From Paraspadella gotoi (Eukaryota > Animalia > Chaetognatha): a stretch of 7,468 nucleotides of DNA. The stretch spans positions 1 to 7,468 of the forward strand of contig JBJCIZ010000644.1 in NCBI GenBank assembly GCA_051294375.1, read 5' to 3'. The notes beneath the pieces were generated by a model. It was not told the origin of the DNA, did no database searches, and was given only the letters and a program-made list of their open reading frames with translations. The translations under genes and the position numbers were made by a program. Positions 625-7,468 of this stretch are shown in pieces (within the stretch, counting starts at the first letter, position 1; each line of letters starts with the position of its first letter).

Positions 625-650
625 CAGCAACTAACAATCAACATCTGTCA

Positions 651-1620
651 ATGTTTTTCCGTAAACGCGCGCTCGCGCGTGCCCTCTCAACCATGACGAT
701 CGCGTTCGATTCGACCGAAAAAAGAATCGACGTCATTTCCCCATTTCGCGCCATGGCATCGAGTCCTCATTTTTCCTTAATTTCTTCCGAAGAGGACGAA
801 CGAAAACAGAACGAAACTTTTTTCGACCAGTCTCTAACCATTTACAAAGTAAGCGAAGAAATCGATTTTCCTCAACAAGTAAAAGACAAAATAATTTTGT
901 TATGAAGAACGAAATTGCCAAACACTGCGAAAATTGCCACACCATCCGCGCGCAACAGGAACAACTCATTTCGTCCTTTAAAACTTTTGTGAACAAACAA
1001 ATAAAAAATTCTCCCCGAACCAGCCGATCTTCACCAAAACCGTTTACAAACCGCAGGAGAACATCTCAGAGAATTATGCGTAAGTCGACACAACGCGCCC
1101 CGCTGGACCTGTCCGTTCTCGCCAAAAAAAATCCCGCGCGATTGAGCGCCGAGGAAGTAGATTCGTATTTTCGTTCGAAAATTCACAGACTTTTCCTACG
1201 ATCCCAATCCTGACTCCGCACCCCCGTCACCGTCTTCCACCCAAGAATTTCACAACGCCGTTCTCACACCGACAATTTCGTTCCTCACGATTCGATGAAC
1301 CGGAACCGGAAGCGGAAGACCCCTAGAGTTCATACAACACTCATCACGACACCTTTTAAAAAAAAAAAAAGGACAAGATAATTTATGCCACAAGAACTTA
1401 ATTGCTCTGTTACGAATGTTTTCTACTAAACATGGAAATGACTTTTTACGCCGAATTCATCGAAGGTACCTTTACCCACGAAGAGATGTACATAAACGAT
1501 TATTTTTCGACCGATTCACCCACAAGAAGAAGATGCGATGATGAACTCTCCAACCCCACCACCGACGAAGGAGACGTCAGGATATCGCGGCGAACGAAGC
1601 GTCATCATGGACATTACTAA
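651..1620 (+). CDS. Putative frameshifted regulatory protein(s) with PLDLS and LxCxE motifs (E1A/E7-like)
   Basis: Successive + ORFs at 651-905, 902-1213 and 1402-1620. PLDLS at 1100-1114, LLCYE at 1402-1416 with acidic sequence downstream, and CENC/CYEC cysteine pairs. Start is ATG 651 or the strong-context gccATGG at 753. That these form one gene is inferred. Confidence 0.5.
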
Positions 1621-2986
1621 CGCCCCCCTTACCCCACCAACAACCCCTAAAACTAAATCATAAAACGGAAAAACGAAAAGAAAAAAATTACTAATATCCC
1701 AAATTCGTAATTATCAGAACCCAAATTGCGATCATGTAAATTTTTCTAACCACAAACATTTGCCATTGTACTTTAAACACGTAATCACGGACCACTTCGA
1801 AATAAAAAAAACAAAAAAAGTTAAAAACTTCTCGTGAAAACGTTGAACTCTCCCGACATCATATCGTTTTTAAAGAATCAACGACGACACCGATCCACAT
1901 GCCTTCGACCGTATCGTTCCGCGACTTTTGTGCAACGCCCCATCGACTCATGGATCCATTCTTCGCAAAGAGGAACGGGAGAAAGTTCGGCGCAGGGTCA
2001 ACCCCCCACCCCCCTTCCGCCCTGAAACGAATCCTGCAAGCGTCAACCCACCGCCACCCAGCAACGAATTCCCACCACGCAGCAACGACACGACCCCAAC
2101 CGAGGAGGAACCGACATCGACGACGAACAAACGTCCGGAGTCCCATGAGGAAGAGTCCGACGATTGGGAGGATGAAGAAGCATTTTACTAACAATAATTT
2201 TAAAAAAAAATTAGCCCTCTCGGTAAAAAGGACGAATACGAGAGTCTTTATTCGGTTTATTCTCAAGAGAATGTAGATTTTATTTTAAGTTCGTATCAAA
2301 AATCATTAGGCAAAATAATTCAATCGTTTAGATTCGTTCCTCGCGAAGAGTCAGCCGATTTCGTCGAACTACTCAACAGAGCCAAACCTCTTTTTAGTAA
2401 TATTATACTTTGAGAACTAAAAAAACAAAAATCTATCAAGTTTTCAGTAAAAATTCGTTTAGCTTTATTTTCCGCCGTAGGCACGTCCACCGACATGGGA
2501 GAAGAGAGCGACGTCGAACACATCGAAGACGCCGACTTGATATATTACGAAAGTCAACAGCCCGTAGAGATCCTGATTCGTGGGGACGGGTTACGGAGCA
2601 CGTTGAACAGGATATTCGAAAATTTGTTTTACGAGATTTCTGAATTAACGTTGAAATGATCCGGACTCGTCTATCTATACACAGTATTTTTAAAATTAAA
2701 TATATTTCGTTTTAAAAATATTATGAGTGTCGGCGGGGCTCACCAAAAATCCCGAAGTTCATCAGAAGAAAGAACGCGCTTTTAAACGTTCCAAGCAATG
2801 ATGGTAAATGTCTGCTGAATTGTATAATAGCATCAATTTTTAATTTTTCCTCAAAAACCGCCAAGTGGGAAAAAAATTATAGACCCTTTTATAAATATAT
2901 TAATTACGAAGGCGTGAATTTTCTGATCACCAGTCCGAGACAAATCGAAAAACTAGAGAAACTTAATAAAAATTTATTTGCCATTC
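1607..2986 (+). pseudogene. polB: N-terminal part of the same pPolB (frameshifted, with in-frame stops)
   Basis: 2219-2986 reads ...LK*SGLVYLYTVFLKLNIFRFKNIMSVGG / PKFIRRKNALLNVPSNDGKCLLNCIIASIF...INYEGVNF...IEKLEKLNKNLFAI. This matches the Polinton PolB N-terminal block (GSGW..L.I.KY..GS.YI.LP..I..K.A.INV.N.D.KCF..S...F.GI.FP...I.KFEK.N). The start at ATG 1607 (A at -3, G at +4, same frame as ORF 1928-2191 and 2219-2745) is tentative. Confidence 0.8.
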
Positions 2987-3291
2987 AAAAAAGAGAGAGA
3001 TCATTAGTAAGTTTCCCCTCTCCGTCCTGATAATAAAAATGTAAAAATTTAACAAAATTCTTTTTATTTTTTCTTCGTTCGATCAGACATCTTTACGTTG
3101 AATCGTCCTAACGGTTACGAAAAGATCGTTCTAAGAGAGAAGGGAAAGAAGAAGGAAACGTGTCGTAACCACGACCGACGACGCGACCGATCGACCGAGC
3201 ACCAACCAACCGGTCTTCGAAAACGTTTTTCGGTAAGGTAAAAAAAAAAAAGATATTAAATTACGAAATGACGAAATGTCTCGTCGGGGAT

Positions 3292-3340
<49 letters not shown>

Positions 3341-3377
3341 CTCTCTTTCTCAGTCTCTCTCCTCTCTCTTCTTCTCT

Positions 3378-3423
<46 letters not shown>

Positions 3424-3501
3424 CTTTCGAATCTCGAAATATCGGAATCTCTCTCTTCTCTCTCTCTCTCCTCTCTCTCTCTCTCTTTTCGATCTCAAAT
3501 T

Positions 3502-3565
<64 letters not shown>

Positions 3566-3621
3566 GGAAAAGCGCTACTGACGATCGAGGAAAAAAGAGG
3601 CTCTCTGTCATTTTTTTATAG
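2987..3621 (+). CDS. Putative spliced 3' part of the secreted-protein gene (exons 2987-3006, 3087-3232, 3567 to ~3581/3621)
   Basis: Intron 3007-3086 has a GTAAGT donor, a TTTAAC branch-like site, a pyrimidine tract and CAG. Splicing gives the open frame KKREII-N-IFTLNRPNGYEKIVLREKGKKKETCRNH. A second donor G|GTAAGG lies at 3233, and the CT tract ends in CCAG|G at 3566. Confidence 0.45.
3007..3086 (+). other. Predicted 80-nt GT-AG spliceosomal intron
   Basis: GTAAGT...TTTAAC...TTCTTTTTATTTTTTCTTCGTTCGATCAG; AT-rich; its removal preserves an open frame. Confidence 0.6.
3295..3563 (+). repeat. Compound (CT)n microsatellite in three blocks with two related spacers
   Basis: TC blocks at 3295-3420, ~3448-3485 and 3506-3563; spacers at 3421-3447 and 3486-3505. 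Confidence 0.98.
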
Positions 3622-3733
3622 GTAAAAAAAAGGTAACGATTCATCATATGTACATATATTTACAAATTATAATTGGCAAACAATAATTATGGATAGAAAT
3701 ATTTATATACATATTTACAAGTTTCAAAATTAT

Positions 3734-6700
3734 TCACCCCTTCTTTTTTTCTCTAAAATTTCCTTTTTTTCTCTTGAGGGCGGGGGTATTTCATACAACA
3801 TTCTTTTTTCGGTGTAATTTGATATGGGGTGATTAAAGGGCAAGTTTTTAACGCATTACGGAAAAAAACTTAAGTCGAAGGATTTAAACTTTTTTTTGAT
3901 AATTCAAGCAAGTACATAAATGTCTATGACTACGTAGAACATGATTTAGTATATTGTACATTTTGAAAATATAAACTTTTTACGTAGTCCTTCATACCGA
4001 TTTTTTCCGCCGCGGCGCTATCCACCCCTTTCAGTCTAATCTTTTTATCATAAGTTTCTTTTTTATAGTCGAAAGTCAAAAACTGTAAGCTTTGGCCTTC
4101 AGACCGGCAAACTGCGCGCTATTTGATTGGGGTAGATCGATCTTAAATTTCCATTAACTTTTTCGTTCTTTTTTTGCCATTCGAAAAGAGTATCCTTTAT
4201 ATTTTCATTATGGTGAAATAAGGATGATCTTTATCCAGATTGCTAACATCCACAACTTATGTAATTTAGCCATTGATTTATAAAAAAAATCCGGACCGTC
4301 TCTTCGAATTGAATAATACTTTTAGGCATACCGAATCCGTATCGGAGGCGAGGACTCTCACGTTGTCGTTCCCGGGGAAGGTGCGGAACTGGGCAATATG
4401 AATTCGTGGAGGCATATCTGGAGGTAATATTTGAAAGGTCTAACACACCCACCGTAAAGATCAGTCGTCCAGCAGTACCTTTTTTGTTGTAAGATTTGCG
4501 TAAATGCAATTTTCTGAAGAGATCATGGCGTCGATGAAGGCGTGGTCGGATATGGTCTTCAACGCCTCCCTCTCGCTAGTAATAAACTTAAAATTTAGCC
4601 ATTTGCCTCCCGCCCACTAACTTGCCGTAGATTACGTTCGAGACAATTTTGCTCTAGAACATTGTATTTTGCTCTTAGATTTTGCCCTTAGTCGATATTT
4701 CCCTGCACAAACTCTCGAAACACACCTTTTGGCGAAAAAAAATAATATTATTGACTCTGGTCAGTTTCACTCCTCTCGTCAGCAAATACTTAAGAAAAAA
4801 GGAAATGTATGAGATAATTTTTTTTCTTGTTAAAATCTACAATTAATTTTTGAACTTTAGCATTTTTTGTTCCGGTTTTAGCCATAAGAATCTTAGTGAA
4901 GGGGGACAGTTCGTCGGGTCGAGGATTCTGTTTTCGGTCAGGGGGGGAACACGTCGAACAAATGCTTGCCTTTCTGTGTAAACTAAATCCACATTAAGAA
5001 AATAACCTATATTACCAAAATTATCTATATTATTACCGGAATTGATTAAAAACTCTCTTTTAATTTCTTTCAGTTCCCGACCCCTCAAATATCGTAAACC
5101 CGCGTAAGGCAATTTATATTTTAATAAAATCTGGCATATAAAGAGTTGATGTCTAAGGGCAAAATGAGCAGGAATCGTAAAGAGGGGTGAGGTGATATCT
5201 CAGACCCTGCCAAATTTCTTCACCCCCTTCCCTCCCTTCCTTCCCTTCGTCCTGCTCTCCGAATCGATGCCCTTCCGATTGTATGATTTTTTAGCTAAAA
5301 TTAAAGCTTCTTTCCGCTTCCTCTAATAATTTATCGCTTATTTTAGCGATATCTTCCGGATGGGTTTGGTAATTAATTCGTCGTTCGATGAGCGTAATTC
5401 ACGAAAATACCCGACCAACCCCCCGTATGGATCGGCGAATTTCTTTGTAAATATCGATGGATCTGAGCATTCTAATTTTACGTTAGATTTATACTTACAA
5501 GCGTCAAAGCGAAAGCTGGTAACGAAAATAACGAGTTATGTCTAATTTAAAGATAGAATATAATTCTTTTCTTAAATTAACGATATTGTCTAATAATGAA
5601 TGGTGTCAATTTTACATAAATGCTGGCATACTCTCCCAAGTTTTTGCATTTTAATTATTATACATGTCTAAAGCTTCCTGATAGTCGCTCTCCGAAATGT
5701 TTTTTCGTTTGAGTCGTGAATAGAAATCTTCGTGTTTAGGGAATTCCGTCTGTTGTAACACGTTCACCCTTGAAGAAATCGTAGAAAAAGTTTGCTTTTC
5801 TGAGAAACGGGGCTAAGGATTCATCATAATTATTTCTTTACAAATTGATGAGTATAAAAAAAATTTTCTTTTAGTCTCTCTGCGCATTCTGGGCATGGGG
5901 TTCCGACCCTTTTTCGCCCCGACAGACGCAAGTATTATTTTCGACTAATTTACTCACTAGGGAGTCCAGGCTCTCAAAATTAAAGTAGTTACACGAATCG
6001 AGAAGGAAAAGCCTCAGTCTTACACTCTTTACATGATTTTTTCCTTTCATTGTTTATAAAACTCCTAATCCTTCTCTCTTTCTTTTAGGTGATTCATCGT
6101 CATCGTCCTGTCGTCCTGTCATCTCTCATCTCGTATTGGAGACTTCGTCAAGTCCTGGCCCCCCGTCGTTCGAGTCGAACTCCATCGTCATCGTCGCTGC
6201 ATCGGGTTTCTCACCGGCTTCCACGCCGTCCGGCCTCCAACGTTTCCACTCGGTCGTAAGCTTCGCTAATACCGGGCATGTCGGCGAAACCCATCTTTCT
6301 CCCTCTTTTTCTCTCTTCTGCTATGTTGGAACCGCCCCTTTGTATATTCTTCGATCTTTCTCTTCTTTCGGCTCTGCATTCAGGCAAAAGAAGCGAATGC
6401 TGACCTCAATCACTTTTCTTCCGTCTTACCCAAACTCCACTCTGCGAAAATAATGGCTTAAGTTCGCTATGGAAGAGGAAGAATCTGGGTAAATCATAAC
6501 TGAGATTTTGTATGGCTATAATTATTTGCTCTTGTCTATCAATGCAAATTCATCGATTGCAAACTAATGCATATATTTTATTGTTAATGTGTAATTCAAA
6601 TTCAATTTACCGGATAAATGTTCGTGATGTAAAACTTTACTGTGTTTTTGAAATAATAAATCATTTTTTTGGGAAGGAATCTTACATAATTCACATTTTT

Positions 6701-7468
6701 TGCTCTTTTGTACTCTTTCGGATTTTATCGTTATTTTTAATTCATTTTGGTAGTTATGAGTTCGTTTAATTCGTATGAATCGTTATACAGAGAATCCAAA
6801 AAATGTTTTTGAACTTGTAATTTTCAAATTCTTCTTCCTCTCGCCTGATAGTGCCTGATAGGAAAGGTATGTGTTTTATCATAGGTATTAATTATCTGAT
6901 AAGCGTATGAAACCAATCTTAAATTACTTATGATTTACTTCGTTTTAAAAATTCTTGCATGGCATGTCGCTGCCACATTTTTCGCAGTCCTACTGGCGTG
7001 TCGTTTTCGTGCTTGAATTGCACCAAGGTCTGTTCTTGCCTCTCCTCCCCCAAGGGATGTACTCTCTATTCAGAATTCAAATTTTTATTCAGTATTTATC
7101 GCTTCGGTGTCGCAAGCGCCAATGAATTTCGAACAGTAAAACGAAGACCATGATTTAAATTCGATGTGAGTGCCCGGTGGGGTCAGTACAAATTTTTGAT
7201 TTCTTTTTTTTTTGAAACATGTTTCGTAATGTGTGATTTTTTTAAGTATAACTTCCAAAGGATCTTAAACATTTAACCAGAAGAACTTCGTACGGTATTC
7301 CTGCTTATGGATGACGACAAGGAGTCTGGAGAGGACGAATGACCATGAAGTGGCTGGCCCTTTCCGTCTGTAATTAGTGAGTCGAACTGCGGTTTCTCGT
7401 TGCACGAGCTAATGAAAAACGGGAAAATTTCTAATTTCTTATTCTTGTAAATTCGTATGTGTAGATAT
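3734..7468 (-). pseudogene. polB: Protein-primed family B DNA polymerase, central and C-terminal part (many frameshifts as sequenced)
   Basis: Manual - strand translation across frameshifts gives collinear motifs: Exo I FIGACDTEA (CDTEA 7114-7100); CELC...KVLHHEHLSGK...CNR (6695-6551); Exo II AIQNLSYD (QNLSYD 6510-6493); LRLFLLDS...SLDSLV (~6020-5955); FLRKANFFYD, EDFYSRL, KNLGEY (~5810-5625); SIRGG (~5430); motif A DINSLY (5153-5136) then LPYAG and GYFLNVDLVY; motif B NVIYGK (4638-4621); motif C SDTDS (DTDS 4343-4332); FAGLKAKAYS and LKGV (~4110-4020); LPFNHP; TGA at 3736-3734 (end approximate). Confidence 0.93.

Follow-up and report, generated by a model that had tools for sequence, protein, structure and literature searches.

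A strand switch in a Polinton-type DNA polymerase gene is marked by a PacBio adapter tail and is very probably a long-read artefact

Polintons or Mavericks (polintovirus, adintovirus-type elements) are characterized by a protein-primed family B DNA polymerase (pPolB). According to the available text of PMC8097293, intact elements are 12.7–24.6 kb long and end in an (AGT)2 or (AG)3 motif, and Maverick particles had not been observed as of that paper; in the part of PMC11131425 at hand, virions are argued from expression only. With regard to assembly errors, adapter-linked mis-joins and inversions are documented in the accessible sections of PMC8864876, which also print the sequences of the 45-base blunt adapter and of the C2 primer. 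Here we describe a stretch of 7,468 nucleotides (the window) in which a Polinton-type polymerase gene changes strand.

The pPolB gene occurs in two pieces on opposite strands, as had been described in an earlier interpretation made from the letters alone (the sequence-only reading). That reading let the plus-strand similarity stop at 2986, which holds to within one base, as contigs from other runs match through 2987. The 5' piece (2267..2987, +; start uncertain, with about a single frame change around 2700) is delimited by tblastn, frameshift-tolerant scores and contig matches to 2985–2987. The 3' piece (3829..7468, −), which was recognized by tblastn and collinear profile tiles, comprises endonuclease VII-like, exonuclease and polymerase regions and contains many frame changes. 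By tblastn, the N-terminal third of the homologues aligned to the plus strand at 2234–3000 and the remainder to the minus strand, with best E-values of 3e-7 (P0009) and 8e-12 (P0003), respectively; the matched segments were mostly 20–35% identical. The frame at 2716–2985 (+) aligned to residues 224–311 of homologue P0006 and 276–364 of P0009. In a profile of 16 full-length homologues (five proteins and 11 of 17 IMG/VR loci), eight tiles were found in order on the minus strand, from profile position 507 (at 6722) to 1146 (at 4055), and none on the plus strand within 3600–7468. Three of four plus-strand tiles within 640–2986 were collinear, reaching up to 2973. The first 750 nt of the minus-strand piece gave no profile tile of 2 bits or more, and the piece harbors about 490 and 160 extra bases relative to the profile. 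A frameshift-aware comparison, which had been asked for along with the sequence-only reading, yielded scores above those of shuffled sequences for both pieces: 167–265 versus 42–54 on the minus strand with five of five homologues, and 101–136 versus 33–45 on the plus strand with four of five, the fifth homologue scoring 47. As a rough figure, about 19–27 frame changes occurred over the ~1.5–1.9 kb aligned in the minus-strand piece. A comparison of the lineages of the two pieces was weak, the best segments reaching just 18–39 bits; L005 and P0012 ranked in the top three for both.

None of the 18 ORFs of the window and none of its 12 frames with stops set to X reached a Pfam cut-off. A library query with 4846–5199 (−) led to the PolB fragment P0003 and from there to ten relatives, five of them longer than 1000 aa, among which PF03175 was present in two and PF02945 in all five (E 0.01). 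This likeness supports the earlier assignment to Polinton-type pPolB, and the comparison supports a gene that would work like, and descend from, a Polinton polymerase. Close relatives were not found in the databases searched, indicating a divergent gene among Polinton/Maverick PolBs. Window fragments used as protein queries gave no match at an E-value of 0.001 among 106 and 59 candidates, and matched no PDB entry and no phage. In the representative library three matches were obtained, with P0003 as the sole PolB piece among them. No relative was detected in metagenome_contigs, and none of P0003 in viral_contigs. The Atlas neighbours of the 2716–2985 frame were unnamed eukaryotic clusters, and the Atlas had no usable match for 848–1210. 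One candidate relative, L001, belongs to a tailed phage and was rejected as matching by chance.

To the left of pPolB, the window consists of short ORFs (1–360, −), a GA tract (399–623) and broken frames without known families (650–2200, +). A protein-primed family B DNA polymerase gene, as in Polintons/Mavericks, was recognized through homologues, with no Pfam match to the window's own frames. In homologous PolB loci, of which six of 17 IMG/VR loci and 38 of 48 of their shorter ORFs were scanned, an A32 ATPase was present in six of six, an rve integrase in four of six and a double jelly-roll capsid protein in two of six. Genes for integrase, packaging ATPase, protease and major or minor capsid proteins were not found in the error-rich 7.5-kb window, which is shorter than intact elements. 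Likewise, among 125 ORFs of at least 130 aa from L002–L016, none below 800 aa matched the window outside PolB at an E-value of 0.01. A candidate element terminus lies downstream of pPolB at 3006..3012 (+), which reads AGTAAGT, an imperfect (AGT)2. X1 and X3, which stem from one sample, each yielded a single contig with a perfect (AGT)2 motif, matching letters behind it and a different flank. This motif opens a candidate terminal region (3006..3600, +), which may represent a terminal inverted repeat (TIR); it is covered by contigs over 3043–3290 in four of four runs and includes a CT/GA microsatellite (3295–3563). Apart from GA tracts, no second copy of this region was found in the window, which has only one element end. 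The GA tract at 399–623 was considered as the partner TIR and was rejected because of its wrong sense. As the window offers a single end and none of the other hallmark genes, membership in a Polinton element appears partly supported. GC skew and AT skew both switch sign near 3000, and GA microsatellites are common in the window (23 tracts counted).

Behind the 5' piece of pPolB, an A-run followed by (GA)4T occupies 2987–3001 (+). Within it, 2989..3001 (+; AAAAGAGAGAGAT) matches the end of the PacBio SMRTbell adapter at 13 of 13 positions, in the sense written by a copying polymerase. The available parts of both PMC10936554 and PMC12257675 show the PacBio adapter ending in the same 13 letters. 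Against the sequences printed in PMC8864876, the 3' end of the C2 primer corresponds to the first A of the 13-mer, so that synthesis from the primer would write the remaining 12 bases first. No adapter loop motif was found near the junction. The 13-mer is present once in the window and in none of 200 shuffles. By Markov models trained on the window including its GA tracts, such a match has a probability of 2e-7 to 1e-5 at any one position; within 5 nt, with either strand allowed, the probability is at most 2.4e-4. The match was noticed post hoc, while its target was fixed by the published adapter. A host as GA-rich as this one is more likely than random DNA to contain a 13-mer resembling the adapter; one of the 23 GA tracts of the window has the form of the adapter tail. 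One or two extra A precede the tail, the A-run at the junction being 5–6 long where 3–4 were expected. Between the tail and the candidate element end lie four bases (3002..3005, +) that represent either flanking host DNA or the element's own terminal bases, as judged from the sequence and from the single flank-bearing contigs of X1 and X3. The sequence-only reading had noticed neither the adapter tail nor the candidate terminus of the element.

Contigs of four runs (three samples, three studies), all short-read assemblies, were aligned to window positions 640–3290. In all four runs, loose ends behind 2987 continue into the reverse strand of the window end, with seven such contigs among the matches listed. 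By eye, 16 of their first 17 letters agree with the reverse strand from 7467 down, and in the longest loose end, 30 letters, a further 11 of 11 agree after a short length difference. Six of the 32 contig pieces listed stop at 2985–2987, and none of the 32 crosses the junction into 3002; these counts rest on the matches listed, besides which at least 726 further pieces and at least 138 further loose ends exist, and these may include a bridging contig. This pattern strongly indicates that the normal arrangement has the two pPolB pieces adjacent on one strand, the contigs possibly being derived from other copies than this one. As the element is multi-copy within the organism sampled, the run-through contigs alone cannot exclude an inversion in this particular copy. 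The same alignments bear on sequence quality. Eleven of 12 indels listed (of 171) are single bases that the window lacks, and gaps outnumber substitutions in several contig pieces, for example 19 versus 6 over 962–1251. Over 2024–2230, contig and window do not differ at all, and such error-free patches indicate that the window is a corrected or assembled sequence rather than a raw read. The differences fit a partly corrected long-read sequence, and many of the frameshifts in the window are likely read errors, as judged from the 640–3290 compared. A search of viral_contigs with the junction pattern gave no match.

The sequence-only reading had further described a seamless, in-frame join of the two halves. 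The adjacency is what is seen in other copies; the frame is kept for no more than about six codons, and the downstream motif cited in that reading lies in another frame. Missing or duplicated residues at the join had been named as a point against it. The leftover bases at the break, one and two, together make one residue, matching the one residue found at this position in 15 of 15 homologues that cover the break (of the 16 full-length ones). The register at the break was fixed in part by visual inspection; the automatic alignments placed two of five homologues in the expected register, and the summed offset score showed no distinct peak there, which makes this a weak test on its own.

Based on the PacBio adapter tail at the junction and the run-through contigs in four of four runs, we conclude that the pPolB strand switch is very probably an artefact of PacBio long-read sequencing, with a single, ordinary Polinton-type element behind it. 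The flagged inversion is very likely not genomic, and as pPolB is unsplit in the other copies seen, the flagged feature is without biological content. The sequence-only reading had kept rearrangement and artefact both open while favouring the latter, a preference borne out by these two observations. Its argument from the break coinciding with the last base of the window led to the right side and is insufficient by itself, since a real inversion excised at the element edge would look the same. As to how the artefact arose, we lean towards a stall of the sequencing polymerase with a restart at the far hairpin. One hairpin-capped template would have carried the two pieces, A and B, in normal order. 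The polymerase would have copied the bottom strand (A) to 2986/2987, stalled at a lesion inside pPolB, and resumed at the primer on the opposite hairpin or jumped to the hairpin loop. The 12–13 adapter bases left beyond the primer would have been copied next, and the top strand (B) would then have been read from its far end inwards as far as that lesion, unless a redundant remainder was trimmed. The product would be A, the adapter tail and reversed B, its end coinciding with that of A; the tail may be too short for adapter calling and could so survive correction and assembly. Such a restart would explain the strand change, the base-exact fit, the lack of duplication, the loopless tail and the record ending at the break. 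In the literature searched, no description of a restart at the opposite primer was found.

Within the artefact verdict, a possible but less probable route runs through software: a read folding back through an unrecognized adapter (in the order A, B, adapter, reverse B) would have been pruned or mis-laid during correction, graph layout or long-read scaffolding, which would leave A and the second pass of B separated by the final adapter bases. Missed adapters are a known problem of CLR data in the available text of PMC8848313, adapter-adjacent inversions and mis-joins do occur in assemblies (PMC8864876, sections at hand), and the patchy accuracy shows that the sequence was processed. However, the loop of the adapter would have to vanish base-exactly together with B's forward copy, and the retained part coincides with the primer 3' end, which software has no reason to respect. 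Ligation in the library, with neighbouring shear fragments re-joined head to head via a broken adapter, is most unlikely. A broken adapter loop, being single-stranded, ligates poorly, and two fragments released from the same molecule would have to meet again with base-exact ends, even if adapter bases do lie between the pieces and chimeric adapter-bearing reads exist (PMC8864876, available text). Rotation of a circular contig, which had been offered as an option, is rejected, as rotation is unable to reverse a strand. Together with a plain mis-oriented contig join without adapter it is extremely unlikely: both would be in line with the break at the last base of the window, but the record has no N gap and the adapter tail would stay unexplained. 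Nanopore chimeras, proximity ligation and chimeras of whole-genome amplification were dropped, since none accounts for the SMRTbell tail.

A real inversion in this copy is very unlikely as well. It would require a first break in pPolB and a second one in the host flank, about 19 bases past the element end, with a flank that is adapter-like by accident and a window cut at the element edge. The second break would indeed fall just outside the candidate terminus, GA microsatellites are common here, multi-copy contigs are uninformative on any single copy, and vertebrate Mavericks are mostly degraded (PMC8097293, available text). Against this, the accidental 13/13 adapter match at the junction has a chance of at most 2.4e-4, no bridging contig occurs among the matches listed from the four runs, and the gap-dominated differences indicate read error rather than decay.

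With the inversion still taken as false, the position of the adapter four bases from the candidate element end would also fit ligation to a free linear Polinton genome instead of a sheared chromosome. The window would then hold the trace of a single molecule from a divergent polintovirus lineage that is active outside the chromosomes of its host, probably an animal as judged from the long GA tracts and the Polinton-type gene. A shear end placed at random would come this near the terminus in about 1 of 1000 cases. We consider this unlikely. A protein-blocked 5' DNA end is expected to resist adapter ligation, the end motif is imperfect, and a single flank was seen. The ends of a high-copy element may be fragile, or the terminus call may be wrong. 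If true, it would be direct evidence of an animal Polinton as free linear DNA.

Compared with known systems, the window gene is collinear with Polinton/Maverick PolBs (polintovirus, adintovirus-type) that carry PF03175 and PF02945 and have an endonuclease VII-like insert; a candidate (AGT)2-like end, imperfect in the window, lies downstream of PolB. In a plain missed-adapter fold-back, a palindrome is formed in which duplicates flank the adapter. In contrast, no inverted duplicate or palindrome around a full adapter was found here, the longest word common to both pieces being 14 nt. A tail of 12–13 bases goes undetected by the customary 44-base filter and is a mark of false inversions that look seamless, and AAAAGAGAGAGAT at a strand switch may serve as a quick artefact test for other apparent inversions. 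The closest counterpart is the adapter contamination described in the available text of PMC8864876 (Sim et al. 2022), where, as here, a false junction within a contig contains adapter bases and the strand changes. The adapter is in reverse-complement sense, as in 89.6% of the cases of that study, with 13 of 45 bases present, which is below its 44-base filter, and the sequence resembles corrected noisy reads rather than HiFi. Type D of that study is a duplicated inversion and type C a foreign contig; the present junction is neither, as the sequences that it joins are adjacent to the base in a single molecule.

Upstream of the gene for the Polinton-type protein-primed DNA polymerase B (pPolB), broken frames occur on the + strand at 650–2200. 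Contigs cover these frames at a depth range equal to that of pPolB, and the frames are therefore likely part of the element. They were without match in Pfam, Atlas or the homologous Polinton-like loci; inspection by eye revealed a Cys/His-rich stretch at approximately 1725–1800, which may represent a zinc finger. At the left end of the window, a broken frame (4–213, − strand) has a signal-peptide-like start, MIPLVLAMCCFALTFARP. A Pfam search of this frame yielded no match, and it is possibly a membrane or secreted accessory gene.

Contig comparison identified 1073–1681 and 1990–2147 as regions that vary between family copies, with 33–330 bases replaced or skipped in several contigs. Short GACC/ACCA repeats at 3170–3215 differed in length between contigs of one sequencing run (X9). 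The sequence also contains long GA/CT microsatellites at 399–623 and 3295–3563, one of which apparently sits within the element's terminal region.

Compared to the homologue profile, the 3′ piece of pPolB is over-length by ~490 bases at 6606–5758 and by ~160 bases at 5639–5115 (both − strand). Charged low-complexity sequence occurs in both intervals, and the extra bases would represent introns or natural insertions.

Among the Polinton-like IMG/VR loci carrying homologous PolB, domain scans identified accessory genes encoding a phospholipase A2-like domain (L002, 1053–1748, −), a Tet/JBP oxygenase (L011, 3925–4689, −) and a Peptidase_S74 chaperone domain (L007, 921–2741, −; L012, 2763–4529, +). 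In L013, a contig of 9821 bases, the terminal 12 bases at either end are mutually reverse-complementary, and this locus may represent an entire element that is bounded by inverted ends and whose PolB is broken.
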